Positions 1-55,451 of a stretch of 57,981 bases of DNA are shown here, piece by piece. The notes beneath the pieces were generated by a model, which did not search any database, was not told where the DNA came from, and saw only the letters and a program-made list of their open reading frames with translations. The position numbers and the translations under genes were made by a program. Every line of letters begins with the position of its first letter. The stretch's first letter is position 1. Origin of the DNA: a virus (lineage: Duplodnaviria > Caudoviricetes); IMG/VR virus record IMGVR_UViG_3300024960_000061, positions 1-57,981 of that record; one strand, written 5' to 3'.

Positions 1-417
1 GTGCGCTGGTACTTCGCCGAGCTGCGCGGGGCGATCCGGGAGGGCCGGGCGCACCTCGGGATGTTCGACAACCGGATCCCGCAACCGCTCGCGCCGTTCG
101 GCTGGAGGGTGGACGCGCAGGGGCGCCACCACACCCTCGGCGAGACGGCGGGGCACTTCGATGCGACGCACGGGAACCTATGGGTGGCGGCCGACGCGGC
201 GCGGACGTTCCTTCCCGTCCCCCGTCCCCCGGTCCCCAGCCAGGTGCCCGAGCTGCCCCGCATCGACGCGTGCCTCTACCGGCTCGGGTGGCTCTCGGCC
301 GACAACATCACGAAGGCCCGGGGCGTCCCCAGCTACCGCGTGCGGGGCGACCTCGACCGGCGCGGCGGGAGCTACTGCGTCGTTCGGTGGGATCGCGTGC
401 GGGGGCTGTTGCTATGA
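1..417 (+). CDS. C-terminal part of a DUF927-like helicase/replication protein (5' end truncated by window)
   Basis: FAELRGAIREGRAHL / FGWRVD / LYRLGWLS align by eye with LLSLVLDAIGSGRAHT / WGYELQ / LHALGCLA at the C-terminus of the helicase at 46723-49134. Confidence 0.55.
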   Translation: MRWYFAELRGAIREGRAHLGMFDNRIPQPLAPFGWRVDAQGRHHTLGETAGHFDATHGNLWVAADAARTFLPVPRPPVPSQVPELPRIDACLYRLGWLSADNITKARGVPSYRVRGDLDRRGGSYCVVRWDRVRGLLL

Positions 418-418
418 T
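413..418 (+). promoter_or_regulatory. -10 box TATGAT for a near-leaderless Fis-like gene
   Basis: TGcTATGAT (extended -10 like) lies 10 nt before ATG 429; the same TATGAT-N10-ATG occurs at the paralogue (21342-21337). Confidence 0.6.
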
Positions 419-428
419 CGCTAGCACC

Positions 429-701
429 ATGGCCGCACCGAAGAAGTCCCCCGCGAAGAAGCCCCCGACGCCGACTGTGGCGGCCGCGCGCGCCGACGGT
501 CGACCGAAGTCGAAGCTCTCTCAGCACGGCGATCAGGCGAAGCTCGAGGCCGAGCGCGCGCTACTCCTCGCGACGCTGGAAGCGAAGGGCTGGAATCTCA
601 CGCACACAGCGCGGGAGCTCGCGATGACCGATGCGTCAGCAGTGCTCCGGGGGATCGACCGCTACGGGCTGCGTACGGAGTACGAAAAGCACAGGGTCTA
701 G
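429..701 (+). CDS. Fis-like (HTH_8) DNA-binding protein, copy 1
   Basis: ERALLLATLEAKGWNLTHTARELAM...VLRGIDRYGL, a Fis/NtrC C-terminal HTH pattern. Confidence 0.8.
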   Translation: MAAPKKSPAKKPPTPTVAAARADGRPKSKLSQHGDQAKLEAERALLLATLEAKGWNLTHTARELAMTDASAVLRGIDRYGLRTEYEKHRV

Positions 702-711
702 TCATCCGTGA

Positions 712-751
712 CATAGCTACGGTTGACAACTTAGTTATGCTGGACTAATGA
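712..751 (+). promoter_or_regulatory. Sigma70-type promoter TTGACA-N17-TAATGA with an imperfect palindrome centred on the -35
   Basis: TTGACA 723-728, TAATGA 746-751; CATAGCTAC-gGTTGaCAAC-TTAGTTATG dyad at 712-739; AT-rich island. Confidence 0.7.
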
Positions 752-758
752 TCCTCCC

Positions 759-795
759 GTAGCCCGCACGACACCCGCGGGCTCGGGAGGCCACC
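759..795 (+). promoter_or_regulatory. Conserved 5' leader hairpin plus RBS
   Basis: GT-AGCCCGC-N9-GCGGGCT-CGGGAGGCCACC-GTG; near-identical copy on the minus strand at 20948-20984. Confidence 0.75.
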
Positions 796-1104
796 GTGGA
801 TCACTCATCCCCGGCGACGCCGCGAAGGGACACGCCTGTCCCTCCGGCGCCGCCCGCGCATCGCCCTGCCAACGACCCCAGCCCCGCGCCGGACCTCGAC
901 TTCCCCGAGCCGGATCTGGAGTTCCCTGAGCCGGACCTCGACTTCCCCCCGCCAGACATCGACGACGAGCTCTCTGGCTGCCCGGTGTTCAACGCGCTCT
1001 GCGAGGCCCGCGCCGCCGAGTCGATCGAGCACCAGGAGGCGCAGCGGTTGCCCTGGGAGTTGTCGTGGACCCCGGCCGACGCCGTCAGCCCGGAGGCCGC
1101 GTGA
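796..1104 (+). CDS. Pro/acidic small protein with PDL(D/E)FP repeats, copy 1
   Basis: GGGAGG RBS then GTG; PDLDFPEPDLEFPEPDLDFP; paralogue at 20747-20947. Confidence 0.75.
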   Translation: MDHSSPATPRRDTPVPPAPPAHRPANDPSPAPDLDFPEPDLEFPEPDLDFPPPDIDDELSGCPVFNALCEARAAESIEHQEAQRLPWELSWTPADAVSPEAA

Positions 1105-2998: not shown

Positions 2999-3376
2999 AT
3001 GGACACCACTGCCGCTAACGCCCCCGCTGACCCCTGGGCCGGGTCCGAGATGCTCTCCACCTACAGCCGCGCCGCCGCGCTCGCCGACGGCGTCCTGGTC
3101 GACGTCACCGCCGAGGCCCGCGCCGTCGGCGTGACCTGCCCGGTGGCGCTGACCGCGGGCGCCTTCGAGGCCCTCGGCGCCGACGACCCCGAGCAGCTCG
3201 GGCGCGCGGTCGTTGCCCTGCGCGTCGCCGCGGGCCTCGCGCGGGGCTGCGACACCGACCGTGTCGACTTCCACCTGCGCGGCCGCGACGGCGCCTGGGT
3301 GCGCCTCTGGGCGCTCTGCGGGCCGGGCGACACCGCCGAGGGCATCATCACGGTGATGCTCGAGGGAGAAGACTGA
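2999..3376 (+). CDS. DUF6573-like protein
   Basis: YSRAAALADGVLVDV...CGPGD...ITVMLEGED pattern. Confidence 0.65.
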   Translation: MDTTAANAPADPWAGSEMLSTYSRAAALADGVLVDVTAEARAVGVTCPVALTAGAFEALGADDPEQLGRAVVALRVAAGLARGCDTDRVDFHLRGRDGAWVRLWALCGPGDTAEGIITVMLEGED

Positions 3377-3621
3377 TGGAACCCTACGAGGCGTGCGACG
3401 AGATCATCGCGCTGGTGTTCGGCCGGGGCTGCGACCCCGCGCAGCTCTGCGACCGGCCCGGCGCGCCGCCAGGGTCCGGGGTCACCCTCGCGGCGCTGCG
3501 GGCCGATCTCGGGGTCCGGCTCGGCGGCCGCGCCCTCCGGGAGGCGCTGGCCATCGTCGACGCGAGCGAGGCCACCGACGCCGCGTGGCGGGCCCGCGAG
3601 GCCATCCGGGGGATGCGATGA
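3376..3621 (+). CDS. Hypothetical protein
   Basis: TGATG-coupled ORF in operon. Confidence 0.55.
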   Translation: MEPYEACDEIIALVFGRGCDPAQLCDRPGAPPGSGVTLAALRADLGVRLGGRALREALAIVDASEATDAAWRAREAIRGMR

Positions 3622-3941
3622 GGCGCTACATCGTCTCCCTCGACGTCGCGGGCTTCGAGGCGGCGGTGCATGGCCTCGTCGCAACGACCGACGACGGGGC
3701 GGCGCTCCTCACCCGACTCGAGGCGCTGCTCGACGACGGGGCCGTCAACCATGTCGCGCCTCCGCCCGCGCCGCGCCGCCCCATTCTCAGCCCCGAGGCG
3801 GTCGCGGTCGCCCTCCGGGAGAGCGGGGGCAACGTCTCCGCCGCGGCTCGCGCCCTGGGCTACTCGCGGGCCGCGGTGCGCGAGAAGGCCGCGCTGTACC
3901 TCCCGACGGCTGCGAGTCCGCTCGACGACGGGCGCAGGTGA
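3618..3941 (+). CDS. Protein with C-terminal Fis-type HTH
   Basis: ATGA overlap; ALRESGGNVSAAARALGYSRAAV. Confidence 0.7.
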   Translation: MRRYIVSLDVAGFEAAVHGLVATTDDGAALLTRLEALLDDGAVNHVAPPPAPRRPILSPEAVAVALRESGGNVSAAARALGYSRAAVREKAALYLPTAASPLDDGRR

Positions 3942-18015: not shown

Positions 18016-18431
18016 CGGTCGTTGGTTCCCGTGGTGAGGAGCTGCGCGCTGGCGTCGGAGAGGGAGAGCACCAGGGCGAACGAGCGCCCCACGACGGGGA
18101 AGACGGTGCCGGTAACGGTGAGCCGATCGCCGTCGAGAACGACCGTGAGAGCGACGTCATCGACGCGCTCGTCCGCGCGGCACTCCTCCTCCGCCGCGCG
18201 GGCGATCTCGCGGAGGTCGGCGTCGTCGAGGGAGTCGTTCAGCGCGGCGCGGATGTCCATCCCGAAGGAGGCGTCATCGAGCAAACTCCCGCGCGGAGTG
18301 ACGAGCCGGTGCGCGAGCGCCTGGGCCAGCGCGGCGGTCCCGCGGATCGGCGGGGCGTACACGTCGAGGTCAAAGAACCCGTCCGCCCCCACGCCGCACG
18401 CGAGGTCGAAGCCGTAGTTGGTGGTGGTCAT
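18012..18431 (-). CDS. Baseplate wedge / sheath initiator (gp25-like)
   Basis: LAQALAHRLVTPRGSLLDD..FG.D, DERVDDV; coupled to J. Confidence 0.75.
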   Translation of the reverse strand: MTTTNYGFDLACGVGADGFFDLDVYAPPIRGTAALAQALAHRLVTPRGSLLDDASFGMDIRAALNDSLDDADLREIARAAEEECRADERVDDVALTVVLDGDRLTVTGTVFPVVGRSFALVLSLSDASAQLLTTGTNDR

Positions 18432-18529: not shown

Positions 18530-19669
18530 TCAGGCCGCGGCGCGACCGCGGTTGGCGTGTCCGCCGGGCGTGGCCGGGGTGCTGATCGCGTCTTCCGGCG
18601 ACCACCCACGGTTGAGCCGGAACCTGATCGTGCTCGGCCCGATGCCTGTCGCCCGAGCCCACTCGCTCACGCGGAGCGTTCTGCCGTGCGCGGTGACGAA
18701 CTTGCGCGGCCGCTCCGCGGTGGTCGCGGTGGCCGAGAGGTAGAGCGCGTGCTTGCGATCGAGGTACACCGTGGCGCCGCCGTAGAGCGCTCGGATGACC
18801 GACGTCGCGACGGTGTTGCCGCACAGCTTGCCGGTCACCGATCGGCTCTCTGCTCTGTAGTGAACCCGCGCCTTCGTGCGAGAGACGCGGCGCGCGAACG
18901 CAAGGAATCCTTCGACCATGGGGACACTGCCCTCCAGAGCGACGTGCCATTGCTTCGTCGTCTTGTGTCGCCCGATCGTCCCATCCCCATCGATGGCGCC
19001 GCGCCAGAAGTGACGCTCAAGATCGGGGCGCAGCGCGGGCGGCGTCGCAATCAGGCTCTTGGCCTGCACCACGTTGTGCCTCGCCAGCCCCGAAACGAGC
19101 TCGGTGCTGGCGATGGCGTACGACGCCGCTGGGAATCCGTTGTTCTCGACGGTGACGATAGGGTGGTCCGACGACAGCGCCGTGCGGAACTTCTCTAGGT
19201 GCCCGACGTCGCGCGCCTGGAGCAGCACGCGCATCAGCTTCCTTGTCACGTAGCCATCGGCCATCAGGAACCCGAGCCAATACGCCTTCGCTTCGGTGTC
19301 GATGACGTCGAAGTAGTGGTGGTCGCAGCCGTACCGACGGTGCGAAACGGCCAGTGACCGAACCTTCCCGCCCTGCCGCCGCACAGCAGCGGTGATGGTG
19401 ACCGGCGCGAGATTGAGCGCGCGGCCCAAGGCGACGCACGACTCGCCGTTGCGGTAACGCTCCACGATGGCGCGCTCGGCTTCCGTCGAGAGGATCATCG
19501 CGGCCTCGGAGCGGCTCCGCATCGGCTCCCCGTTCCGCTTCAGGATCATCGCCGCCGATGCGGTCGGCACGCCCGCCGCCGCCGCGGCTCCCGCGGTGGA
19601 CTTCCCCGAGCGGTACGCGGTCACGACGGCACCAACAACATCAGGGGGCCATGCGACGCCTCGGCCCAT
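18530..19669 (-). CDS. LAGLIDADG homing-endonuclease-like protein with HTH domains
   Basis: YWLGFLMADGY and HFWRGAIDGDG motifs; TGATG coupling. Confidence 0.8.
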   Translation of the reverse strand: MGRGVAWPPDVVGAVVTAYRSGKSTAGAAAAAGVPTASAAMILKRNGEPMRSRSEAAMILSTEAERAIVERYRNGESCVALGRALNLAPVTITAAVRRQGGKVRSLAVSHRRYGCDHHYFDVIDTEAKAYWLGFLMADGYVTRKLMRVLLQARDVGHLEKFRTALSSDHPIVTVENNGFPAASYAIASTELVSGLARHNVVQAKSLIATPPALRPDLERHFWRGAIDGDGTIGRHKTTKQWHVALEGSVPMVEGFLAFARRVSRTKARVHYRAESRSVTGKLCGNTVATSVIRALYGGATVYLDRKHALYLSATATTAERPRKFVTAHGRTLRVSEWARATGIGPSTIRFRLNRGWSPEDAISTPATPGGHANRGRAAA

Positions 19670-20262
19670 CACTTCACCGCGCCCTTCATGCTGACCGCGC
19701 GCTCCGCAGGCCAGCCTCGATCCAGCCGCGCCGCGATCGTCCCGCCGCGCACCCCGTAGACATCGCTCCACTCGGCCACGCACCGCGCGACGCCGAAGGC
19801 GGCCACGACCCGGTTGTTGTCCTTGTTCCGCCCCTGCGTCGTCGCCGTCGCCCACCGCACGTTGCCGGGCTCGTAGCCGCGGTCGTTGTCGATGCGGTCC
19901 AGGCTGGCGCCGTCGAAGGGGCGCGGGCCAACGTCGGCCGCGAACGCCGCGAAGCTCGCAGACCAGCGGGGACAGACCGTGATGCCGCGTCCGCCGTACC
20001 TATCGTTGGAGGCGTCGCCGCAGCGCGCCCGCATCCCGACCCACACCTCGTAGAGGGGCGACCCCGCGGCCCGGTGATCTTCTGACGCCCTCCGCTCGCT
20101 CGCCTTCCCGCACCCGCAGTCGCGCGCCTTCGTCCGCGCCGCCATCGTCACCGACCGTCCGCAGTCGCAGGCCCACACCGCGAGCTGCACCCAACCGCGG
20201 GCGGTGCGGACCCTCCCGTCGCAGAGCCGCACCATCACCAGCGCGCCGCGGCGGCGCATCAC
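19669..20262 (-). CDS. Phage HNH-type endonuclease
   Basis: YGGRGITVCPRW..F..F..D.G.RP...SLDRIDNDRGYEPGNVRWAT. Confidence 0.8.
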   Translation of the reverse strand: MMRRRGALVMVRLCDGRVRTARGWVQLAVWACDCGRSVTMAARTKARDCGCGKASERRASEDHRAAGSPLYEVWVGMRARCGDASNDRYGGRGITVCPRWSASFAAFAADVGPRPFDGASLDRIDNDRGYEPGNVRWATATTQGRNKDNNRVVAAFGVARCVAEWSDVYGVRGGTIAARLDRGWPAERAVSMKGAVK

Positions 20263-20750
20263 TTCTTCGCTCCGCGCCAGCGCCGCTCGATGTCCCCGCC
20301 GTCGTTCCGCGCTTCGTACGTCGCCCCACGCAGCAGCAACGTCCCGACGCGCTTGATGAGCCGAGCCCGGTCGACCACTTCCCGCGTGATGAACGCGACC
20401 GCGCTCGGCCGCTCGCTGTTCTCTAGGACGTACTCAACGCTCTTCCCGAGCAGCACCGTGAGGTGCTTCATCGTCTCCCCGAGCACCGCGGCCGTGTGCT
20501 CAGGGCGGGTGCGGTCGTCGGCTTCGGCGTAGAGCGTCGCGAGGGCCAGCGCCTCGTCGATGGAGAAGATGGCGTGGTCCTTCAGGTCGGCCAGGATCGC
20601 GTCGTATCCCTGTTCCCAGGGCAGCCGCTCCCCCGGGACCGGCGTGGCCTGGAGCTTCGCGATGCAGGCATCGCAGAGGGTGTGCTTGGACGGGCGGAAG
20701 CAGTCGATGCAGCGGTCGGCCGCGAGCACGAAAGGGCGACGCGGCTTCAT
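20259..20750 (-). CDS. Hypothetical protein with N-terminal Zn finger
   Basis: CIDC...CDAC; RLPWE motif shared with 796-1104. Confidence 0.65.
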   Translation of the reverse strand: MKPRRPFVLAADRCIDCFRPSKHTLCDACIAKLQATPVPGERLPWEQGYDAILADLKDHAIFSIDEALALATLYAEADDRTRPEHTAAVLGETMKHLTVLLGKSVEYVLENSERPSAVAFITREVVDRARLIKRVGTLLLRGATYEARNDGGDIERRWRGAKK

Positions 20751-20947
20751 CGCACGGCCTCGCCAACAAGAGCGCTGTCGAGGTTGGGCGGCGGGACGTC
20801 TAGGTCGGGCGCGCCGGGCTCAAGGTCCGGCGGCGAGGGGAAGTCGAGGTCCGGCGGCGAGGGCTGCGGATCGACGACAGGGCGATGCGTTGGCGGCGCC
20901 GGAGGGACGGGGACGTCCTTCGGCACCGCCGGGGTCTGATGAACCAC
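20747..20947 (-). CDS. Pro/acidic small protein with PDLDFP repeats, copy 2
   Basis: VPPAPPTHRP...PDLDFPSPPDLEP..PDLDVPPP; paralogue of 796-1104. Confidence 0.75.
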   Translation of the reverse strand: MVHQTPAVPKDVPVPPAPPTHRPVVDPQPSPPDLDFPSPPDLEPGAPDLDVPPPNLDSALVGEAVR

Positions 20948-20984
20948 GGTGGCCTCCCGAGCCCGCGTGGTTGGTGCGGGCTAC
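20948..20984 (-). promoter_or_regulatory. Conserved 5' leader hairpin plus RBS, copy 2
   Basis: Minus strand GTAGCCCGC-N9-GCGGGCTCGGGAGGCCACC-GTG. Confidence 0.75.
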
Positions 20985-20991
20985 AGAGAGA

Positions 20992-21033
20992 ACACTAGCG
21001 GATTGCTAAACTTAGCGCAAGGCTAACCTTAGC
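20992..21033 (-). promoter_or_regulatory. Promoter TTGCGC-N17-TAGTGT with two GCTAA-N2-TTAGC palindromes
   Basis: -35 at 21020-21015, -10 at 20997-20992; palindromes at 21005-21016 and 21022-21033. Confidence 0.75.
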
Positions 21034-21035
21034 GG

Positions 21036-21326
21036 TTAGCTCTGTTTCGGGCGCCCCGCCTTGGCGTCGCCGCGCTCCTTCGCCGCCTCGTACTCCTCGG
21101 TCAGTCCGAGCACCTTGATCGCTCGGTTGACGTCGCCCGGTCCGGCCATCTCCAGCGACTCAGCGACGCGGGTGAGGTTCCAGCCGCACTCCTTGAGCGC
21201 CCCGAGAAGCATCCCGCGCTGCGCGGCCTCGCCCGCCTGGGTGAGCTTCGACTTGCGTCGCGCCTCGGGTTCCGTCGCCTTCGCCGGGGTCTTCTTCCGT
21301 CCGCCGCTCGTCTTCGTCGTCGCCAT
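21036..21326 (-). CDS. Fis-like (HTH_8) DNA-binding protein, copy 2
   Basis: KSKLTQAGE...LLGALKECGWNLTRVAESLEM...IKVLGL; TATGAT 10 nt upstream of the ATG. Confidence 0.8.
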   Translation of the reverse strand: MATTKTSGGRKKTPAKATEPEARRKSKLTQAGEAAQRGMLLGALKECGWNLTRVAESLEMAGPGDVNRAIKVLGLTEEYEAAKERGDAKAGRPKQS

Positions 21327-21411
21327 GCCGCCGAGCATCATACGCGACCTCCTAGTCACCCGCCTACGCCGCGGCAACGGCGGAGCTTCACGCCTCGGCC
21401 CCTCGGCCCCG

Positions 21412-21975
21412 TCAGCGCAGCGAGAGGGGCTGCGCGCCGGAGGTCGGCTTCGCGTCGGGCGGGATCGGAGCCGGTGCGACCTCGTCCTCCGATGCCGGAG
21501 GCTCCGCCGGAGCGCCGTCGGTCAGGCCACCATCCGCCGCGCCATCCGCCGGCGGAGGTAGCGTCTCCACCCGCTTCGGGGGCGGCGCGCTCTCGCCGGG
21601 TTTGGGGACCTCAAGCTCCGCGAACGCAGTGTCGAAGGTGCCGCGCCGGAGTTCCCTCGCAAGTACCGCGTAGGTGTCGTGCTTGTCGCCTTCCTTCACC
21701 TCGCCGAGCATCAGCACGACGATCGCGTTCTTCTCCGGCGACGCGATCCACACGATGCGCGTGCGATCCCCGACGTGTCTGGCGCGGATGCCCGAAAGAT
21801 CCTCGCTCTTGATGTGGGAGGGGTTGAGCCCGTGCTCGGGGAGGTACTCGACGAGCGCGTGCCGGACAGCCTTCCAGAGCTTGCCAACAGGCTTCTCCGG
21901 CTTCGCCTCGCCCTTGGCCTTGAGGCTGGCGATCTGCTCGGCCGCGACCGGTGAGTAGGTGATCTTGATCAGCAC
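21412..21975 (-). CDS. RelE/YhaV-like toxin with Pro-rich tail
   Basis: ITYSPVA, RTRIVW...IVVLML, KEGDKHDTYAVL.R.L..G. Confidence 0.65.
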   Translation of the reverse strand: MLIKITYSPVAAEQIASLKAKGEAKPEKPVGKLWKAVRHALVEYLPEHGLNPSHIKSEDLSGIRARHVGDRTRIVWIASPEKNAIVVLMLGEVKEGDKHDTYAVLARELRRGTFDTAFAELEVPKPGESAPPPKRVETLPPPADGAADGGLTDGAPAEPPASEDEVAPAPIPPDAKPTSGAQPLSLR

Positions 21976-21989
21976 CGGACCCTCGGGTT

Positions 21990-22484
21990 CTAGAGGTCCA
22001 GCGCGACGCTCGGGCCGTCCCCGACATCCTCCGGGAACGGGATAGCCAAGTCCTCGTCGGCCCCCAGAAGCGGCTCCTCGCCGAGCATGTGACCCAGAAA
22101 CACCAGGTCGTTCGTCAGGCTGTCCACGTTACGATCGAGAGCCGCCTTCAGGCGCTTCGCCAGTGGAGGGAAGTGTTTCCGCAGGGAGCGCAAAAACGGA
22201 TCCCAGGAGCCATCGCGGATCTGATGGAGCAGGCGCACCCCTTCCCTATACACACTCACCAATTCCGTCCGGTCGACAGCCCCCGAGTCGAGCGCGAAGA
22301 AGTTTGACAGCGGATTACCCCGCTCTCCCAGACAACCCTCAAGCGCCTTCGTCTTGTGGAGCGCATGATCGCGCAGCGCGCGAAGGTTCGGGTGAGCAGA
22401 GACGGCCGCCGGGGCCCCGATCGCCCCGAAGATGAGCGCGGCCTTCGCCGGGTTCATGTGCTTGACGGTGTTCATCTGCATCAT
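21990..22484 (-). CDS. Putative antitoxin of unrecognised family
   Basis: Immediately upstream of the toxin; acidic C-terminus DEDLAIPFPEDV; start codon uncertain. Confidence 0.5.
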   Translation of the reverse strand: MMQMNTVKHMNPAKAALIFGAIGAPAAVSAHPNLRALRDHALHKTKALEGCLGERGNPLSNFFALDSGAVDRTELVSVYREGVRLLHQIRDGSWDPFLRSLRKHFPPLAKRLKAALDRNVDSLTNDLVFLGHMLGEEPLLGADEDLAIPFPEDVGDGPSVALDL

Positions 22485-24595: not shown

Positions 24596-27366
24596 GCGCC
24601 ACCCGCGAGCTGCATCCGACCGAAGGTGCCGACGAGGTACTCCTCGATGCGCTCGCCAATCGTCATGCCGGTCTCCTCAGCGCTCGCACCGCCCTGCACC
24701 TGAACGACGATGCTGATCGAGGGAGCGCCCATCGAGCCCATCCCCGCCCCGCCGAAGCCCGGTAGGCCCGGTGGCGCGACGACGTTGGACATCGCCGACT
24801 GGACGCCACCAGCGCCCGAGTCGAGCCCCTGCGTGACGCCCATCGCCATGAACTCGCCAATCTCCGCCATGACGCGGGAGGGCGACTTGATCTGGAGGTC
24901 GGTGCGCGCCTGCGTGGGCAGGCTGTCCATCACGGAGCTGACCTCCGACTGCATGAACGCCTGCTGCGAGCGGAAGCCCGCCGCGACGCCTTGGCCCATG
25001 TTCTGGCCGATGCCGAAGAAGTCAGCCGCCGCCCTCGCCGCGGTGCCCCGCGGGAGAATGGCGTCGATTGCCGCGTCGTGCGCCCGACCGCGCAGGAAGT
25101 CGATCGGGTGGAGCATCAGTTGGATGACGTCCCGCACCCCGGCCTCGATCTGCGGGAGCAACTGCCCCGCCGCGATGAGCCGTGCGACCCATCGCGTCGT
25201 GAGCATCGACACCCGGAGCATGAAGACGGCGATGGAGGCTAGCCCGCGCCCGAACTCCCGCGCCTCGGGCCCGAGCTCTCGCATCGTACCCGCGAGGTCG
25301 CTGAACCCTCCCAGGCTTCGCAGGAAGGGCATGAACCCTTCGAGGAACCCTCCGCTGAACCCCTGCCAGATGGCGCGGAGCGGCGGGAGGAGGGCCTTCA
25401 CGGTTTCCATCACCGAGGACAGCGCGCCGTCGAAGCCGCCGTCACCGAAGATGGTGCCGACAAACATTGCGGCGTCGTTCACCAGTCCGGCGAAGATGGC
25501 CTGGAGGGCCTTCCCGTTGTTGGTGGTGCCCGCGAGCATGCTGGTGATGTCGGTCAGCATCGACTTCAGCATCACGATGCCGGGGAGGTTCTCGATATCC
25601 TGAATGGACGAGATGAAGGTCTGGAAGCCCTCGCCCAAGTTGGACAGCACCGCGGCCATCGACCCCGACTTCGACCGCGCGAAATCGCCGCTGTTGCGGT
25701 TGCCGAGCTGGCTGTTCTGCTCGGCCAGAATCGCGTCGTGCATCTGACGGCCGGTGATCTGGCCGTTGCCCTGCGCGGTGCGAATACGCCGTTGATACGC
25801 CGCCTCGGTGTCGTTGCCTTGAACGATATGCGCCGCGACGGCCGCGCGGCGCATGGCTGCGACCTCGCTCACCCCGGCGGCCATCGCCGCCGGGCGGTAG
25901 TCGGCCGAGCGCGCAACGGAGCTGTTCCGCAGTTGCCCCATCTGGAGCATGAAGCGCGAGGCGGTCCCTGCGTCGTTAGGATGCAGCGCGCCCGCGTCCG
26001 CCGCGGCAGCGGTCATCGTCCGCGCCTCGGCGCCCTGGTAGCCCGCCGTCGTGGCCTGCGTGCGCAGCTCGGTCACCTGCTGCGTGGAGAGAGGCGTTTC
26101 GCGACCGAACTGCTGCGCCCAGCGGAACTCATCCTGCGCGGCCGAGCCGCGCGCAGCCTGGCGCTCCTGAGCGCTCATCCGCTCTTCGCCCGGCACCCGC
26201 ATCAGGGTGGTGAGCGTCATCAGGGTGGACTCCCTGAAGCTGATCATCTGGAGGATGGCGCCACCGATGGAGAGGGCGAGCTGCCCGAACTCCATCACCA
26301 GCCCACCGATCTGCCCGATGATCTCGAAGGTCGTGCGGGTGATCGACAGCATGGCGCTGCCGAGTGCGTAGACCGCGGCCATGAGGGCCGTCGCTCCCGC
26401 TGCGGCGTAACCCATCGCGGAGATGCCGCCGCGGCCAATCAGGCCTTCCAGCGCCGACATGATCGGCGACGCGTCGCGTTGCGCGTTCTGCCGCACAAGG
26501 GCGCGGTCGAGCCGCACGCCTTCCTGACGATGCCTCGCTGCAGCCCGCTCGTTCTGCCGTCGCCCCCACGCCTGCGCGCTCTGCTGCGATCGGTAGATGC
26601 CGCGGTAGTAGCGCTCGCTGTCCCGGGCATCGCGCGCCACTCCGCGCGACCGATCGCGCGCAGCAGCCCGCTCCCCTCGCTGCACCTGGCCGAAGTGCCG
26701 ATCAGCCAGACGCCGGTTGGCGTCGTCGAGGCGCGACTGCCGCGCGACCCGCTGCTCACGCTCCCGGCCCGCGCGCTGCTCTCCGCGCTGGAACGCGGCG
26801 AAGTGCCCGTCCGCCATGCGGCGGTTGGCGTCGTCAACGCGCGCCTTGCGCTGCTCTCCGCGCTGCACCTGCGCGAAGTGCCCGTCGGCCATGCGCCGAT
26901 CGGCCGCCTCGCGTCGAGCCCGGTTGGCCTCGCGCTGCTCGCGCTCGCGGGCCTGACGGCGCTCGCCCCGCTGGAACGTCGCGTAGTGCCCGTCCGCCTC
27001 GCGGCGCGCCCTCGCCTCGCGCTGCTCACGCTGGGCTGAGACGCGCGCGACGGCCCCGTGCGCATCGAGCTGCTGCTTCGTCTCGCGGCGGCGCTGGCGG
27101 TCCGCCGCCCGATCGTCGCGCACCCGCTGCGCCTGGGTCGACCGCTGCTCGCGGAGCGCGCGGGTCTGCTCCCGGATGAGCCCGGCCTGCGCGCGCAGTC
27201 GGCGGGAGGTGTCCCCACCGCCCATGCCGCGCAGGGCCTTGTCGGTGAGGCCCGCCAGGCTCTGCAGCTCGCGCATGGCCGCGTTGAGCGCCACCACCTC
27301 GCGCTTGATGCGCTTGGCGTTGGCCGCGGCCTTGTCCTCGAGCTTGAGTGACCAGCAAGTTTCCAT
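24592..27366 (-). CDS. Tape measure protein
   Basis: Long helical ORF after the chaperone; FGRETPLS..QV and LQIKSPSRVM..IG motifs. Confidence 0.85.
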   Translation of the reverse strand: METCWSLKLEDKAAANAKRIKREVVALNAAMRELQSLAGLTDKALRGMGGGDTSRRLRAQAGLIREQTRALREQRSTQAQRVRDDRAADRQRRRETKQQLDAHGAVARVSAQREQREARARREADGHYATFQRGERRQAREREQREANRARREAADRRMADGHFAQVQRGEQRKARVDDANRRMADGHFAAFQRGEQRAGREREQRVARQSRLDDANRRLADRHFGQVQRGERAAARDRSRGVARDARDSERYYRGIYRSQQSAQAWGRRQNERAAARHRQEGVRLDRALVRQNAQRDASPIMSALEGLIGRGGISAMGYAAAGATALMAAVYALGSAMLSITRTTFEIIGQIGGLVMEFGQLALSIGGAILQMISFRESTLMTLTTLMRVPGEERMSAQERQAARGSAAQDEFRWAQQFGRETPLSTQQVTELRTQATTAGYQGAEARTMTAAAADAGALHPNDAGTASRFMLQMGQLRNSSVARSADYRPAAMAAGVSEVAAMRRAAVAAHIVQGNDTEAAYQRRIRTAQGNGQITGRQMHDAILAEQNSQLGNRNSGDFARSKSGSMAAVLSNLGEGFQTFISSIQDIENLPGIVMLKSMLTDITSMLAGTTNNGKALQAIFAGLVNDAAMFVGTIFGDGGFDGALSSVMETVKALLPPLRAIWQGFSGGFLEGFMPFLRSLGGFSDLAGTMRELGPEAREFGRGLASIAVFMLRVSMLTTRWVARLIAAGQLLPQIEAGVRDVIQLMLHPIDFLRGRAHDAAIDAILPRGTAARAAADFFGIGQNMGQGVAAGFRSQQAFMQSEVSSVMDSLPTQARTDLQIKSPSRVMAEIGEFMAMGVTQGLDSGAGGVQSAMSNVVAPPGLPGFGGAGMGSMGAPSISIVVQVQGGASAEETGMTIGERIEEYLVGTFGRMQLAGGA

Positions 27367-38042: not shown

Positions 38043-38562
38043 TGGTCAGCGCCCCGATGGGCTTCCCGTCGCTGGTGACGTCGTGGCGCTCGGCGGGCAG
38101 CGTGCCGTCGGCGCGCATCTCGGCGACCCGAGCCTCCGCGCGGAGCTTCCGCAGATGTACCCGCCGGAGCGGAGCCTCCGCGCGGAACTTCAACAACGAC
38201 TCGGCCGCCCGCCAGTCGCCCGGGACGCCCTTCGTCTCCGGCTGGCCGCCCTTCGCGGCCTGGGGCTTCACGCCCTCCGCCGCGCGGCGGATGTACCCGA
38301 CCAGCGCGACGTCGCTCTCTGCCACGGCTTGGTCGACGGCCTTCGCGAGCTCGGCGAAGCGCTCGTCGGCGGCCTTCTCCTCCTCCTCGGTCGCGTCGCC
38401 GGCCCGGACCCGCAGCGCGAAGCGCCCGGCCCGGAGCCACTTGCAGAAGCACGACCACTGCACGCCGGCGAACCCGACGGCCTGCCGGAGCGAGCTGCCC
38501 GCCTTCAGCGCGGCAACGATGCGGGCGCGATCCTCGTCGGTGTAGGTCAGCGGCGGGGCCAT
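37981..38562 (-). CDS. terS: Terminase small subunit
   Basis: N-terminal HTH, DWRAA..LL, HDVTSDGKPI tail; directly upstream of terL. Confidence 0.75.
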   Translation of the reverse strand: MAPPLTYTDEDRARIVAALKAGSSLRQAVGFAGVQWSCFCKWLRAGRFALRVRAGDATEEEEKAADERFAELAKAVDQAVAESDVALVGYIRRAAEGVKPQAAKGGQPETKGVPGDWRAAESLLKFRAEAPLRRVHLRKLRAEARVAEMRADGTLPAERHDVTSDGKPIGALTNEELDARLAAAEQRRRDRGG

Positions 38563-39245
38563 CAGGCGGCGACATTCCAGAAGAGCGCGCCGGGGCGCGA
38601 GCGCACGAAGCGCCAGACCTTGGCGTCGTAGTTCCCGCACGAGGGGAAGGGCGGGGGCTCGGCGGCGTCCTGCTCGTAGCGCTCGAGGGCGACGTGGAGG
38701 GTGGCGCGCCCGACGTTCGGCGGCTTCCCGACGCGCACCGCATGGACCTCGGCGGACGGCCACGCATCGGCCAGCGCCCGCGCGAGCGTCCCGCTGCCGG
38801 CGGCGCACCACACCTCGCGGGGGGCGAGGCCGATCGAGCGGGCCGCAGCGACGAGGGCGTCGTGCGCCTCGTCGTTGTCGAAGCCGAAGGGCACGAGGGC
38901 GGCGCCGACGCGCCGTGCGTACTCCCGAGCCCGGGCCTGCACCACCACCAGGTGCCCGGGGGTGACCTGCACGACCTTCGCCCCGGCCCGGTGGGCGCGG
39001 AGCGTCCGCTCGTGAGGTTCGTTCCGCTTCGCCACGAACACCGTCGCCCGGGCGCCCGCCTCCGCCGCAGCGTGGGCCAGCGCGATCTGCGCGTAGCCCT
39101 GCGCGGGCGACGCGTATACGAACTCCGCGGCGGCGCGGGCCCGGAGGAGCTTCTCGGCGACGCGCTGCTTCGAGCCGCCAGGGAGGAGGTCGTCCCGCAC
39201 CACCAGCACGCCGTCGTGCTCGCGCACGACCGGCCGCGGGATCAG
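38562..39245 (-). CDS. PLP-dependent enzyme (fold type II / PALP family)
   Basis: VRDDLLPGGSKQR (PLP lysine), GSGT, YDAK.W; start uncertain (CTG 39245 overlapping the MTase stop, or GTG 39227). Confidence 0.8.
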   Translation of the reverse strand: MIPRPVVREHDGVLVVRDDLLPGGSKQRVAEKLLRARAAAEFVYASPAQGYAQIALAHAAAEAGARATVFVAKRNEPHERTLRAHRAGAKVVQVTPGHLVVVQARAREYARRVGAALVPFGFDNDEAHDALVAAARSIGLAPREVWCAAGSGTLARALADAWPSAEVHAVRVGKPPNVGRATLHVALERYEQDAAEPPPFPSCGNYDAKVWRFVRSRPGALFWNVAA

Positions 39246-40876
39246 GCGAGCACCTCGCCGAACTCGGAGGCGGGGTCGCCGACGCCGGTGGGCGCGTCGC
39301 CGGGCCCGAGCAGCTCGTCGGCGTCGATCGGGCCGCACGCCTCGGTCGCGCGCTTCGGGTCGCCCTTCACGAACACGAGCACGTTCTGGTGTGCCTTGCC
39401 GAGCTTCCGCGCCGCGAGGAACGCCCGCGGCGCTCGGATCGCGAGGGACGCAGCCTGGGTGACCAGCACGGCCTCGTTGTAGAGCGCGCAGCCGGCGGCC
39501 TCGAAGGCCTCGACCGTGACGCTGGGGAACTTGCGGTAGCGCCCCTTGGCGTCTCGCAGGTCGCCGACGACGAAGCACGCGAAACGGTCGGGGCGGAGCC
39601 GCGCCACCGCGTGGGCGATGATCTCCCGGTAGGCCGCGCAGAACGCCGGCCACTCCATCGTCGAGAGATCGTTCGGGTCGTCGGAGTAGCGTTCGAGGTC
39701 CGCGTACGGCGGGCACGAGAACACGAGGTCGAAGGCCTCGCCCGCAGGGAGCAGCGCGGGCAGCCGGCGGGAGTCGCCGACGATCCACCGCGGGGCGGCC
39801 TCGAGCGTCGCGGCAGCGGCCTGGGCCTCGTTCGCGGCGACCTGCTCGGCGCGGAGCTCGACGCCCGTGTACGCGCGCCCGAGCCAACCCGCGACGAGCC
39901 CGCGAACGGAGCCGCCCGCGAAGGGGTCGAGCACCGCGGCGCCCGGGGCACTGAACCAGCGGTAGGCCGCCTCGGCGAGCACCGGGTCGAAGATCGACGT
40001 GCCGTGCTGCGCGGCGAGCTCGGCGTGGTCGCGCAGGAACTCCTCCCACGGCAGCGGGCGCCCGAGGCGCGCCTCGACCGCGTTCTTCGCCGCGTACATC
40101 TGCGGCGACTGCGCGCTGTTGGAGTAGACGAGCCCGTCCTGCGTGCGGTCGCCCTCGTTGCCGCGCCCGAGCTCGCTCTCGATGCCACGCGCGATCCACG
40201 CGCGCTTGCGCTCCTGCCAGTAGCCCTGCCGGGCGTCGAGCACCGTGAAGGGCGGGATGCCGAACCGCTCGGCCAGCGTCGCCGGTCGGGCCGCGGGGTC
40301 GCGCGAGCCGGCCGCTCCATCGGCGGCAGGGTCTCCCGGCGAGCCGGAGGCGCCCTCGTCGGCGCCGTCGAGGATCGCGTCGCCCGCGCCCTGCACGAGG
40401 GCGTCGAGCGCGGCGTCGTCGAAGCCGATGTCGGCGAGCAACTCGGTCCCGCGGCCGAAGGTCGAGAGCATCTCCAACACGCGCACCGAGTCGTCGACGC
40501 CCTGGAGCGCCTTCGCGTTGTCGGCGACGGTCATCGCGTCCGCCTCGGCGTCGCCCACGTCGACCAGGCGCACCGGGACCATGCCGGGGCCCGGAGCCTC
40601 CGGGTCGAAGAGGTGCTCGGCGCCGCCGCGCGGCTCGCCGTCGACGACGAGGCCCGCGAGGATCGCCTGCGCGGCCTCGAGGCGGCCGTGCCCGCCGATG
40701 ATCCGGCGCGAGCGGCGCTGCGCCACGATGGGCGCGCCCCACGCGGTGCGGAGGATCGTGCGGGCGAGGCGCATCACCTCGTCGCCGTGCATCCTCGGGT
40801 TGCGCGGGTTGGGGCGCAGCTCGGAGACGTGCACGTAGATCGCGGCGGGCGCGGGCTGAGGGAGCGTGGTGTCCAT
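39242..40876 (-). CDS. ParB-like domain plus amino-DNA-methyltransferase-fold fusion
   Basis: PNPRNPR.H, IIGGHGR, ADN (ParB); DPFAGGS motif I; FSCPPY motif IV. Confidence 0.85.
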   Translation of the reverse strand: MDTTLPQPAPAAIYVHVSELRPNPRNPRMHGDEVMRLARTILRTAWGAPIVAQRRSRRIIGGHGRLEAAQAILAGLVVDGEPRGGAEHLFDPEAPGPGMVPVRLVDVGDAEADAMTVADNAKALQGVDDSVRVLEMLSTFGRGTELLADIGFDDAALDALVQGAGDAILDGADEGASGSPGDPAADGAAGSRDPAARPATLAERFGIPPFTVLDARQGYWQERKRAWIARGIESELGRGNEGDRTQDGLVYSNSAQSPQMYAAKNAVEARLGRPLPWEEFLRDHAELAAQHGTSIFDPVLAEAAYRWFSAPGAAVLDPFAGGSVRGLVAGWLGRAYTGVELRAEQVAANEAQAAAATLEAAPRWIVGDSRRLPALLPAGEAFDLVFSCPPYADLERYSDDPNDLSTMEWPAFCAAYREIIAHAVARLRPDRFACFVVGDLRDAKGRYRKFPSVTVEAFEAAGCALYNEAVLVTQAASLAIRAPRAFLAARKLGKAHQNVLVFVKGDPKRATEACGPIDADELLGPGDAPTGVGDPASEFGEVLA

Positions 40877-40896
40877 CGGGGAGGGGAGGGGAGGGT

Positions 40897-41373
40897 TCAA
40901 CTCGGGTCGGAGGCGTCGGGCTCGTGCTGCGCCACGAGGGCGTCGCCCAGGCGGCGCGCGGTGACGAGGTAGCGCTCGCCGCCGAGGATGCGGTGGAGGT
41001 CCAGCAGCGCGGCGATGTCGAGCGAGAGCGGCGCGCCCGCGGAGCGGTGGCGCATATGCTCGCGCAGCCGCTCGATCTCCCGCGTGGCGCTCCCCAGATC
41101 CTCGTCGCGCTCGCGCAGGAGCACGGCCACCTCGTCGCGCTGGCCTTCGACCGCGGTGAGCTTCGACTCGACCTCGCGCACCCGGAAGCGCCCGCCTTCG
41201 AGGTCGCGACCGAGCTGCTCGGCGCGCGCGTTCGCAGCAGCGAGGGCGGCTTCGCGGGCCTCGAGGTCGGCGGTGAGCTCCCCCACACGGGCGGCCAGCG
41301 AGGCGTTGGCCTGCTCGAGCTCGACGAGGGGATTCGTGTCAGGGAGCTTCGTGGTGGGGTCGGTCTTCGCCAT
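40897..41373 (-). CDS. Coiled-coil hypothetical protein
   Basis: GGAG RBS; heptad-rich ORF. Confidence 0.65.
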   Translation of the reverse strand: MAKTDPTTKLPDTNPLVELEQANASLAARVGELTADLEAREAALAAANARAEQLGRDLEGGRFRVREVESKLTAVEGQRDEVAVLLRERDEDLGSATREIERLREHMRHRSAGAPLSLDIAALLDLHRILGGERYLVTARRLGDALVAQHEPDASDPS

Positions 41374-51407: not shown

Positions 51408-51449
51408 GGGTCAACCTCGCCTTCACGACGAGGGCTACCATTTATCGAT

Positions 51450-51471
51450 CAATAGACAAGTGCGTCTATTG
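51450..51471. promoter_or_regulatory. Operator-like palindrome overlapping the Fis-like gene stop
   Basis: CAATAGAC-N6-GTCTATTG perfect inverted repeat. Confidence 0.65.
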
Positions 51472-52197
51472 TTTTTTCTGGGACCCCTTCGATTTCCGAC
51501 CGCGCCGGACCAGGCCAGAGAGCCGCGCGCGCTCCAGGTCCTTTCCGAGGCCCAGGTCCTTGATCGTCCTCAGGACGACGGTGGTGCCAGCGAGGCCCAA
51601 CTCTTCGGCGGCGGCCGGCATGTTCCACTCGTGGCGATTCAGTACCTCGCGAAGCACCGCCCGACGCAACGCGGCGGACATGAGACTACCGAGGGCCAGG
51701 AGCTTGTTGCTGCCCATCGCCCTCAGATCCTGGCACTCGATCAGTTCGCCCAGTGCGTCGAGCATTGCTCCCGGTGCGAGATCCATGAACTTGAGCCGCC
51801 AGGAGGCTCCATCGTCGCCGCACACGGGCTCGTACTCCGGCATCTCCGTGGCCTGATGCAGGCGCGTCATGGCCTCGGCGACCCGGTCGGAGATTGCCGT
51901 CCGTGGTTCCGTTGGGGCGAGGTGGATCCGCATCGCGGGCAACTCGCGAGCTGCCAGCGCTCCCTCCTCGTCGTCGGGAGGAGCGAGCGCCGCGAAAACG
52001 ACCGTGGTTTGCTCGCGTAGGTAGCGCGCGAGTTCCCGTCGGCGGTCCACCGAGAGGCTCCAATCCGCCGAGTCTTCCAGCCGCCGGCGGCGATCGATCA
52101 TCTTCGACTTGGACCCCGCTCGGGCGACACCCGTCTTTCGTGAGCCCGAGCCCGGCTCAGCAACATGTCCAGCCATCGCATGTTTCGAGGCGCTCAC
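51466..52197 (-). CDS. Protein with C-terminal Fis-like HTH, copy 3
   Basis: VLREVLNRHEWNMPAAAEELGL...VLRTIKDLGL, similar to 429-701 and 21036-21326. Confidence 0.7.
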   Translation of the reverse strand: MSASKHAMAGHVAEPGSGSRKTGVARAGSKSKMIDRRRRLEDSADWSLSVDRRRELARYLREQTTVVFAALAPPDDEEGALAARELPAMRIHLAPTEPRTAISDRVAEAMTRLHQATEMPEYEPVCGDDGASWRLKFMDLAPGAMLDALGELIECQDLRAMGSNKLLALGSLMSAALRRAVLREVLNRHEWNMPAAAEELGLAGTTVVLRTIKDLGLGKDLERARLSGLVRRGRKSKGSQKKQ

Positions 52198-52650: not shown

Positions 52651-53125
52651 ATGAGTCGAACGACGAACGAGACGCCTCAGTCGGGGCTACCGACGACCGC
52701 CGAGAGTGAGGACGTGCGCACGCGCCCCGGCCGCTGCTCGGTCGCGGGCCGCCAGGCCGCGGTGCTCGAGCTCTTCGCGGGCAAGGCCATGCAAGGCCAT
52801 GATCGACCAGCTCGCCCGCCGCTTCGGGGGCCACCCGGAGACCATCGAGCAATGGCGCTCCGTGGCCCTGGGCGGCATCCACGAAGCCTTCGCCAAGGGC
52901 TCCAAGTTCCCCAAGGAGCGCGAGCTGGAGCGCAAGAACCGCCAGCTCTGTGACGCGGTCACCGAGGGCTCCATCCGCGAGGCCGTGCTCAAGCGGTAGC
53001 TGGAGGCCGCTCGCGGCGCGCGCCCTACACTGCCCGCGAAGTCGCGGCTGTGGCACGGGCACGGCGCGTCGCATGAGGGGCGTGCGCGGCGCCCCTGGGG
53101 TTCAGCTGGACTACCTCTGCGCCGA
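52651..53125 (+). pseudogene. IS3-family transposase OrfA remnant
   Basis: AVLELFAGK / IDQLARRFG.HPETIEQWR...ELERKNRQL; frameshifted by a GCAAGGCCAT duplication (52781-52800); in-frame TAG at 52997. Confidence 0.7.
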
Positions 53126-54729: not shown

Positions 54730-55451
54730 CCAGCACGGTCACCGCGCTCTGCGCGCTGCTCACATCTCCCGATCGAGCTACTACGCGGCGCGACGCGCAT
54801 GCGAGCACGACCCGGCGGCCGCCGCCACGCCGTCGGCGACCGAGGAGCGATCGGCCGAGACAAGGGACGATCGACACCCACCCAGGGGTCGACGGCTCGC
54901 TGCGTCGGTCGAGCGCGTGGTGGCAGGCCTGCGCGAGGTCGTCTCGTGGTACCCCGCCTGGGGCGTGTGCAAGGTTTGGGCGACGCTGCGGCGCGACGGG
55001 CTGGTGGTGGCGCGCAAGCGGGGCAGGGCGCTGAAGAAGCGCGCGGGGCTGCTCATCCGCGCCTCGCAAGGCCGTGGCGTCGCCGCGCGAGCACGTCTGG
55101 GTGCCCGAGCCCAACCGGCGGTTCGCCACGGACCTGACGCTGGTGTGGACGCGGCGCAAGGGGTGGGTGGCCGTGGCGCCGACGATCGACTGCGGGTGCC
55201 GAGGCGTGCTGGGACTCGTGGTGTCCCGGAGCCGGGAGGCTCGGGTGGTGCTGGCGTCCGTCGATCAGGCCCTGAAGGCGGCGTTCGGGGAGCCGTTGGG
55301 GGTGGAGCGTATTCTCGACCACGGGTCGCAGTACACGGGCGGGGATTGCCGCGCGCTGCTGGGGTGCTGGGGCGTCGAGCAGACCTTCTCGCCGGTGGGC
55401 CGCCCGACGTGGTACGCGGTCGTGGAGCCGCTCAGATCAGGAACCGGCTGA
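54730..55451 (+). pseudogene. IS3-family transposase OrfB (DDE) remnant
   Basis: ISRSSYY, WG..KVWA.L, PNRRFATDLT, DHGSQYT; frameshifted and truncated. Confidence 0.8.

Follow-up and report, generated by a model that had tools for sequence, protein, structure and literature searches.

How is a group of accessory genes controlled when it lies among the essential genes of a prophage? The question is raised by IMG/VR record IMGVR_UViG_3300024960_000061, a tailed virus (Duplodnaviria; Caudoviricetes) in which a small helix-turn-helix (HTH) gene, a promoter with palindromes, a leader with a 5′ hairpin and a gene for a short proline-rich, acidic peptide follow one another in the same order at two distant places. 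The stretch analysed here – referred to as the window – is the complete provirus record of 57,981 bases, with about 71% guanine plus cytosine (GC) and a CheckV completeness estimate of 83%. An initial sequence-only reading proposed that the arrangement is a portable switch, in which a stand-alone Fis-type protein controls the operon lying downstream in tandem, and did not recognise it as a described system.

Here, we compare the two copies with each other and with their relatives in viral, genome and metagenome contigs. As judged from these records, a number of uncultured, GC-rich tailed prophages share the arrangement – referred to as the cassette – and it is probably a self-contained on/off unit for accessory genes among essential phage genes. 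We favour a reading in which a dedicated local repressor, together with an insulated promoter and leader, gates accessory cargo, and put its probability at about 0.5.

Two copies of a cassette and a diverged third

Copies A and B lie at 413–1104 on the plus strand and at 21342–20747 on the minus strand, with the identical spacing that the sequence-only reading had described. In each, a small HTH_8 gene and a sigma-70-like promoter with palindromes come before a leader of the form GTAGCCCGC-N9-GCGGGCTCGGGAGGCCACC-GTG. The motif GTAGCCCGC-N9-GCGGGCTCGGGAGG has exactly two matches in the window, at 759–790 (+) and 20984–20953 (−), the whole record yields the same two copies, and none of 100 dinucleotide-preserving shuffles of the window contains two or more.

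Copy A begins with the gene for HTH_A (414–701, +), a protein of 95 amino acids from ATG 414 or 90 from ATG 429. It is followed by a candidate operator and promoter at 712–752 (−35 TTGACA at 723–728 and −10 AATGAT at about 747–752, from a promoter scan and the repeats), by CCTCCC at 753–758 between the −10 and the predicted +1, and by a leader at 759–798 in which a hairpin (759–783; a 7-bp GC stem with a 9-nucleotide loop), a Shine-Dalgarno (SD) sequence CGGGAGG (784–790) and a GTG start (796) can be read directly. A transcript starting seven bases after the −10 would have its 5′ end at the foot of the hairpin. The GTG opens peptide A (796–1104; 102 amino acids), which is rich in proline and acidic residues and contains PDLDFP repeats and an RLPWELSW motif, and its stop codon overlaps the start of a second cargo gene (1101–1430; 109 amino acids).

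In copy B, on the minus strand, HTH_B (21036–21341; 101 amino acids) is followed by a candidate operator and promoter at 20985–21033, with −35 TTGCGC (21020–21015) and −10 TAGTGT (20997–20992) within GCTAGTGT by direct reading, and a TCTCTCT discriminator after the −10. The leader (20945–20984, from direct reading and folding) again contains a hairpin, the SD sequence CGGGAGG (20959–20953) and a GTG start (20947). Peptide B (20747–20947; 66 amino acids) joins by an ATGA overlap onto a gene for a cysteine-rich protein of 163 amino acids (20259–20750) with the motif RLPWEQGY, which corresponds to the C-terminus of peptide A plus the gene at 1101–1430, the latter having a weak likeness to its C-terminal part. 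A protein atlas holds no match to the 163-residue protein at 0.9 or above.

Strong DNA similarity between the two copies begins exactly at G759 and G20984 and extends over 215 nucleotides with 79.5% identity. HTH_A and HTH_B share 41% amino acid identity, the two peptides 62%, and the genes that follow them 26% (E = 6e-5). Because these last genes are also related, the duplicated unit comprises three genes, with the best-conserved stretch running from the predicted +1 into the peptide.

A third, diverged cassette (C; 51408–51942, −) consists of an HTH_8 protein of 158 amino acids (51942–51466) followed by TTGTCT...GATAAAT, a leader with the same GTAGCCC start as the other copies, a hairpin CCTCG-N9-CGAGG that contains the SD sequence, and an ATG at 51407. 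Its longer HTH_8 protein heads the block of replication genes, and might be the main early regulator of the phage.

Recurrence in related prophages and exchange of modules

An alignment of B-type HTH proteins found seven loci in viral contigs, and profile searches of the records that hold them gave more copies: three family members are present in the window's record (G000), one in G001, three in G002, two in G003 (1.35 kb apart), four in G004, one in G005 and none in G006. G001 has an estimated completeness of 100% and G005 of 77%. Recurrence was counted over 15 distinct HTH copies with readable downstream DNA, from seven viral or metagenome records that include the window's. The sequence-only reading had asked whether homologous HTH genes in other genomes lack the leader; the cassette layout follows ten of the 15 copies, within about 25–50 nucleotides of the stop codon. 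These are the window's A, B and C, the single copy in G001, two of the three in G002, one each in G003 (G003_a) and G004 (G004_a), the copy in G005 (locus L011) and locus L005, which is identical to L006.

The order that they share is an AT-rich sigma-70-like promoter with inverted repeats, six to seven pyrimidines, a GC hairpin, GGAGG, three to eight bases and a start codon. In G001 and G005 the hairpin is homologous to that of the window (ACGCCCGC, a loop of 8–9 nucleotides and GCGGGCAGGGAGG); the hairpins of G002_a, G002_b, G003_a, G004_a and L005 share no sequence with the window's and have the same layout. At the level of sequence, then, the architecture is a property of the HTH family. 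In viral contigs the exact leader motif of the window had no match, and a relaxed form matched four stretches: the relatives in G001 and G005, and two others (L029 and L030) that were rejected as relatives, having unrelated A-rich, terminator-like hairpins.

Three comparisons place a joint within the cassette. Copies A and B have a common leader and peptide with different HTH proteins and operators; G001 and G005 have a common leader and a common 235-residue cargo protein, and differ in both HTH and operator (half-sites TAGGCT in G001 and TCTAAG in G005); and a 1,460-nucleotide contig of DNA from an activated-sludge metagenome resembles the window over 753–1468 alone, with 38 differences there and 209 unlike bases in front. 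These joints indicate that the HTH-operator-promoter and leader-cargo parts have been exchanged separately, and the joint between the modules lies at the predicted transcription start. What the sequence-only reading called a portable switch is thus borne out as a unit that recurs and recombines; that the HTH protein controls the adjacent promoter is what we infer from the arrangement.

The abrupt start of the A/B identity at G759, and the join of the foreign contig at 753, have the look of a recombination boundary and also suit a reading in which the adjacency is purely structural. The HTH protein – a Fis-like nucleoid protein, or a regulator of some other target – would then simply end its unit, the palindromes would be bound by another protein, the hairpin would be a terminator lacking a U tract and a 5′ stabiliser, and the identity between A and B would reflect a recent duplication or recombination tract. 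A word search with the peptides, which returned only the window's own two proteins among 38 candidates, fits this as well, and a precedent is lambda NinH, a phage Fis-like, DNA-bending protein with no operator assigned to it (PMC7166090). We nevertheless think it doubtful, because the same order occurs with unrelated hairpins and operators in five further cassettes, because HTH and operator change together over a constant cargo (G001 against L011), and because the records of G001 and G005 hold no other family member.

The start of the HTH genes

The hexamer TATGAT stands in front of both HTH genes (TATGAT at 413–418, N10, ATG 429 in copy A; TATGAT at 21342–21337, N10, ATG 21326 in copy B), and the sequence-only reading had concluded that they are near-leaderless. 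This was not borne out, as the hexamer itself includes an ATG in the HTH reading frame (414 in copy A, 21341 in copy B). ATG 414 shares the sequence ATGA with the TGA stop codon (415–417) of a well-supported upstream open reading frame (ORF; 1–417, +), an arrangement that usually signals translational coupling; ATG 21341 is preceded, at a distance of six bases, by AGGAGG. HTH genes of relatives start in an ATGA overlap (L004), in a GTGA overlap behind GGGAGGG (L005) or behind GGAGG (L020), and TATGAT or TATGCT is present in only four of about 11 loci. No −35 is found at 16–18 nucleotides from TATGAT and the promoter scan calls nothing there; reading the hexamer as a −10 is unnecessary, and such a −10 would have no −35.

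In the family alignment the second methionine (MA..K) hardly varies, and roughly half of the proteins in the database begin at it. Four diverged loci (A, B, L018 and L020) have T-ATG-(A/C)T, followed four to five codons later by this second methionine, in whose place L018 has GTG. A second start, or a role of the hexamer at the DNA level, are both conceivable explanations of TATGAT.

The upstream neighbours bear on a further possibility, that the HTH protein is the antitoxin of a reversed (HigBA-like) toxin–antitoxin pair with the gene before it. The ORF upstream of HTH_B (21975–21412, −; 187 amino acids) has a sub-threshold match to Toxin_YhaV (E = 8.1e-6; 26.4 bits against a cutoff of 35), and Fis-like HTH antitoxins (COG2886, with PIN toxins) are described in PMC2701414. 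We regard this as very improbable, since the ORF upstream of HTH_A is unrelated to that at 21975–21412 and the other HTH copies have different same-strand upstream neighbours, or none. The ORF at 1–417, which is open at the 5′ end of the window and has a third-position GC of 0.94, has no family match in Pfam or PHROGs. As a separate observation, ORF 21412–21975 has a possible partner ORF at 21990–22556/22127, and the two may be a toxin–antitoxin pair inside the tail-module island. Several HTH genes of relatives (at L020, L017 and L023) are preceded by genes for small, cysteine-rich, secreted-looking proteins (...C..DDC...C..GW.C....G.C), and behind each of these lies a further promoter-like site that has a palindrome to itself, such as AAAAGATA-N9-TATCTTTT in G004.

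A family of stand-alone Fis/NtrC-type proteins

That the HTH is Fis-like is supported both by Pfam, for HTH_A, and by the predicted fold, which place it with the Fis/NtrC-type domains. Against the HTH_8 gathering cutoff of 22 bits, HTH_A scores 24.2 and the HTH_8 protein of cassette C 25.5; HTH_B, at 17.6 bits, lies below the cutoff and joins through the family profile (E = 6.9e-37). A profile built from HTH_A and HTH_B recovers 356 clusters at 50% identity with E ≤ 1e-3, and 106 with E ≤ 1e-10, mostly stand-alone proteins of 80–120 amino acids; the ten clusters that were looked up all come from metagenome assemblies. In family members a basic N-terminal tail rich in lysine and proline leads to a conserved KSKLTQ.G, after which come the Fis-type helices.

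The AlphaFold model of HTH_A has a mean predicted local distance difference test (pLDDT) score of 82.7 overall and at least 90 over the domain, which consists of a long helix and a helix-turn-helix (helices 34–57, 62–68, 74–83 and 87–93). The best Foldseek matches are the NtrC4 DNA-binding domain, NtrX, ZraR and Fis, with probabilities of 0.9–1.0, template modelling scores by target of 0.5–0.7, and root-mean-square deviations of 0.7–0.9 over 46 residues in the best rows; the small size of the domain keeps the E-values weak, at 0.25 or worse. A profile search of solved structures returns 4fth and 3e7l with E = 0.045–0.09. The sigma-54 activators NtrC4, NtrX and ZraR, together with Fis, are therefore the closest matches of the family in sequence and fold; unlike these activators, the phage-borne family has no receiver or AAA+ domain. 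The HTH protein is presumably dimeric.

Close relatives are scarce among the sequences searched. A tblastn search of both HTH proteins against 50,697 phage records gave no match, and protein-pattern scans of viral contigs with the two HTH proteins, the two peptides and an A-type HTH alignment confirmed no relative. A scan of genome contigs yielded a single locus, L003, from a metagenome-assembled genome of Blastocatellia, with 35% identity over 43 residues, and a scan of metagenomes found three short contigs, one of which (L004) ends at the HTH stop codon. The unit downstream of copy A holds a further HTH_8 protein (3618–3941, +; 27.8 bits), which falls outside the family profile and is followed by neither a promoter nor a leader.

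Promoters and candidate operators

The copy A promoter matches the consensus at ten of 12 positions and is the only site called in 4.5 kb, where 0.2 are expected. Across nine cassettes the matches range from six to ten of 12, and the −35 is TTGACA in three and TTGACT in another three. In copy A an inverted repeat, CATAGCTA-N12-TAGTTATG, with one mismatch and unique in the window, flanks the −35 at 712–739, and a second repeat, TTAGT/ACTAA, extends into the −10. Copy B has GCTAANNTTAGC twice, at 21033–21022 and 21016–21005, the only two occurrences in the window, and exact repeats centred at about −46, −42.5, −34 and −25.5.

Exact inverted repeats of at least 5 bp are found in the promoter region of eight of the nine cassettes. 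Four cassettes (A, B, G001 and L011) have homologous leaders, and in these the half-sites are placed at about −45, −26 and −12; dyads near −34 contain exact repeats of at least 5 bp in B, G001 and L011, with one mismatch in that of A, and an exact repeat lies near −18/−19 in A, G001 and L011. In all four a copy of the half-site overlaps the −10 (ACTAATGAT, GCTAGTGT, CTAGGCT and GTCTAACAT, respectively). Dyad symmetry thus overlaps the core promoter as it does in repressor-controlled promoters, and these repeats are candidate operators; half-sites over the −10 together with good −35 hexamers favour repression.

Each operator is found only at its own cassette within its record, and in G001 and G005 the sole family HTH of the record lies directly upstream of the operator-bearing promoter. 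That each HTH protein pairs with the adjacent operator would follow most simply from these two records, which are the best available argument for it, short of proof.

The sign of regulation could be the opposite. The HTH protein might be an activator or a dual-function relay, comparable to the relay-style activators Mor and C of phage Mu, such that the last product of one unit switches on the next promoter and the hairpin is a mere 5′ stabiliser. It would be expected on this account that the HTH gene is the last of an upstream unit, as the ATGA or GTGA overlaps in copy A, L004 and L005 suggest, and that copies occur in series, as in the G003 and G004 records. The copy B promoter is also weak (six of 12 consensus matches, and not called by the scan), and its palindrome near −42.5 is at a position typical of activators; together these may leave room for activation. 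We consider an activator unlikely, however. Activator-dependent promoters usually lack a consensus −35, and TTGACA or TTGACT is present in six of nine cassettes; half-sites overlap the −10 in A, B, G001 and L011; and the pyrimidine stretch before the predicted +1, described below, is left unexplained. Systems of the Mu Mor/C type have a Mor-family protein and target promoters without a recognisable −35; here the Pfam scan matched HTH_8 only, with no Mor family, and a −35 of the TTGACA or TTGACT type is recognisable in those six of nine promoters.

The leader RNA

In copy A, CCTCCC together with G759 forms CCTCCCG, the complement of the SD sequence CGGGAGG. Since it lies upstream of the predicted +1, this anti-SD stretch would act only in RNA that reads through from further upstream. 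Bases complementary to the SD sequence precede the predicted +1 in other cassettes too: CTCTC in B and G002_a, TCCTCCC in G001, CCTCTC in G005, CTCC plus GTC in G002_b, and TTCTCC in L005. In seven of nine cassettes the predicted probability that the SD sequence is unpaired is 0.001–0.04 in read-through RNA, against 0.34–0.85 in RNA that starts at the predicted +1. Compared with versions in which random 12-mers of the same record take the place of the 12 upstream bases, the native value falls in the lowest 1–11% in seven of nine cassettes (Fisher p = 2e-5 for all nine; 0.002 with the four homologous leaders counted once).

The leader stem is followed by CGGGAGGCCACC. The hairpin was also considered as an intrinsic terminator and rejected, as there is no U tract and no terminator call at either 759–790 or 20984–20953, which also counts against the structural reading of the adjacency. 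A 225-nucleotide contig from a metatranscriptome library covers 590–814 without a mismatch, spanning the 3′ end of the HTH gene, the promoter and the leader, and a second contig covers 538–704. The longer contig runs through the hairpin, which is weak evidence of the same kind; it may be compatible with read-through RNA, with DNA carry-over being possible in such libraries. Rfam 15 has no match at E ≤ 1 in 600–1200 or 20600–21400.

Cargo and genomic position

The first ORF after the leader mostly encodes a short, acidic protein rich in proline or cysteine. The motif [LP]PWE..[WFY] is present in it in copy A, G002_a, G002_b and G004_a, with the variant PPPWG in G003_a, and in copy B the LPWE-type motif sits in the second ORF. 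In six cassettes (A, B, G002_a, G002_b, G003_a and G004_a) the stop codon overlaps an ATG or GTG. The 235-residue cargo protein of G001 and G005 has a sub-threshold Bro-N match (E = 0.0026); proteins of this kind are often annotated as antirepressors.

Copy B carries two free-standing HNH-type endonuclease genes (18530–20262, −; 20262–19669 and 19624–18530), assigned from PHROGs and Pfam, which separate the cassette from the baseplate genes. One is an HNH gene (phrog_3377; E = 1.2e-45) and the other (phrog_4645) has weak matches to LAGLIDADG_3 and HNH; from these matches, both look like homing-endonuclease cargo. G002_a and G004_a carry TnpB-type OrfB_IS605 genes, and the TnpB-type gene (OrfB_IS605 plus a Cas12f1-like TNB domain) stands directly after the LPWE peptide at 9.7–11.8 kb in G002 (L020/L032) and at 41.1–43.2 kb in G004 (L017/L034). 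The unit downstream of copy A also includes a DUF6573 protein (3050–3376, +).

Within the tail module, copy B and the G001 cassette are found at the same position: the tape-measure/hub genes come before them and the baseplate wedge and J genes after them, and both cassettes are on the strand of the late genes. Both are ‘moron’-type islands.

A model for cassette function

We propose that the cassette is built of two evolutionary modules: a small Fis/NtrC-type HTH gene with its private operator, and a leader with its cargo. The HTH protein would bind its own operator and repress the adjacent downstream promoter. As the repressor gene precedes the cargo and has the same orientation, RNA made from it, or read-through from the late operon, would continue into the cargo. 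In such read-through RNA, CCTCCC or CTCTC would pair with GGAGG and extend the GC hairpin to a stem of 13–14 bp, and the buried ribosome site would keep the first cargo gene untranslated. RNA born at the promoter would instead start at the base of the hairpin and lack the anti-SD, its ribosome site would be more open and its 5′ hairpin likely stabilising, and the Pro/acidic LPWE protein and the genes translationally coupled to it would be made. A more specific version, which we offer tentatively, is that the cassette is a portable ‘origin-of-transcript discriminator’, in which the promoter discriminator doubles as the anti-SD and only RNAs born at the privately repressed promoter are translated.

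Several points weigh against the repressor model. Binding of the HTH protein to the operator, the sign of regulation, the transcription start site and the effect on translation are all predictions, and they are drawn from about ten cassettes in one phage clade, a small sample of related records. Five of the 15 HTH copies (L021, L022, L023, L025 and L026) have no cassette downstream. To the weak promoter of copy B and its palindrome near −42.5 is added a half-site spacing that varies from 7 to 20 bp between cassettes and is hard to fit to one dimer geometry. Two of the nine cassettes (G003_a and G004_a) have no predicted difference in SD accessibility, and even in RNA from the predicted +1 the SD sequence is only partly open. 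Finally, when the 12 upstream bases are themselves shuffled, the fractions that reach the observed value in the nine cassettes are 0.19, 0.15, 0.17, 0.04, 0.10, 0.00, 0.89, 0.08 and 0.03; the weakness of this control means that pyrimidine richness beside a purine-rich SD sequence explains part of the effect.

Other features of the prophage

ORFs were called with a crude codon-position gene finder and then scanned against Pfam and PHROGs, and the result is a tailed prophage with nearly all genes on the minus strand. After the HTH_8 protein of cassette C, the scan places primase-like genes at 49975–46723, a tyrosine integrase at 46502–45054, a ParB-methylase at 40900–39242, the terminase at 38042–36423, a Mu-type portal, a protease and a gpT head protein at 36426–31591, the tail sheath at 29870–28413, the tape measure at 27366–24592, and the baseplate wedge and J genes at 18431–16834, all on the minus strand. 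Large minus-strand ORFs without family assignment, perhaps tail fibres, extend down to about 9.2 kb. The window contains no tRNA genes.

Directly before the terminase, 38562–40900 (−) holds the ParB-like/DNA methylase fusion (552 amino acids) and then a truncated-looking PALP (threonine dehydratase-like) gene. The right end carries insertion-sequence remnants (HTH_Tnp_1 at 52799–52999 and rve at 55074–55451) and a serine recombinase (57879–57109), and, given these, the provirus boundary may lie inside the window.

Relationship to known systems

The sequence-only claim that this is not a described system holds in part: functional analogues exist, in acr-aca operons and the P22 ant moron, and NinH is a Fis-like phage protein in print, but the exact tandem layout was not found. 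An open-access keyword search found no description of a stand-alone HTH_8 regulator in tandem before its target promoter in phages, which is weak evidence of absence.

Anti-CRISPR (acr-aca) operons are described in PMC9410906 and PMC8633003 as having one or two inverted repeats in the core promoter, with unrepressed transcription being harmful to the phage, and HTH_8 is among the Pfam hits listed there for Aca1. The likeness, as to acrIF1-aca1 of phage JBD30, is in a strong promoter with core inverted repeats, small accessory proteins and, if the model holds, a dedicated small HTH dimer repressor. However, aca follows acr within one operon and shuts off the promoter from which it is itself transcribed, whereas the HTH gene is upstream of the promoter in all ten cassettes; and an anti-defence role of the cassette cargo would be speculative. 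No Aca chain was returned by the profile search of solved structures at E ≤ 1, and none is among the Foldseek matches listed.

The P22 ant moron (mnt, arc, sar, ant) is portrayed in PMC2629481 as a variable, independently promoted island in the late structural operon. Mnt, Arc and an antisense RNA, sar, control the island, and late transcripts have to cross it to reach the tailspike gene. With it the cassette has the late-operon position in common and, as proposed here, small dedicated repressors and an RNA-level block on the first cargo gene; the weak Bro-N match of the G001 and G005 cargo is a further likeness. It differs in that mnt is divergent, an antisense RNA takes the place of the cis anti-SD proposed here, and the window's cargo is HNH endonucleases and LPWE peptides, with no ant; Mnt and Arc are ribbon-helix-helix proteins. 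In the ‘fold-back inhibition’ of IS10 and IS50, an inverted repeat encoded ahead of the start of the element's own RNA is present only in transcripts arriving from outside, where it pairs with the ribosome site and prevents translation; to our knowledge IS10 has no dedicated tandem repressor gene.

Lambda NinH, which its authors call in PMC7166090 the first Fis-like protein to be encoded by a phage, is presented there as a homodimer that binds and bends DNA, a mimic of nucleoid-associated proteins with a degenerate 15-bp preference. Like the cassette HTH proteins it is a stand-alone small Fis-type phage protein; unlike them it has no dedicated promoter, and the cassette family has a basic N-terminal tail and private palindromic sites.

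If the model fails, the finding reduces to an unremarkable duplication of a promoter and leader region in a mosaic prophage. If its discriminator version is correct, a clade of GC-rich myovirus-like prophages would be able to park cargo in essential late operons without expressing it by late read-through, the cargo so insulated being HNH endonucleases, TnpB, Bro-N-like proteins and LPWE mini-proteins, and the conserved junction of +1 and hairpin would double as a recombination joint at which regulators and cargo are shuffled. The model, if it holds, would amount to a compact rule for insulating accessory islands in essential operons, in which a private repressor gates transcription and the start of the RNA gates translation. 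Pairs of orthogonal repressors and operators that carry their own insulator against read-through would then make useful genetic tools for GC-rich bacteria, and a function would be assigned to a stand-alone Fis-type family, 356 clusters in size, that is known only from metagenomes.

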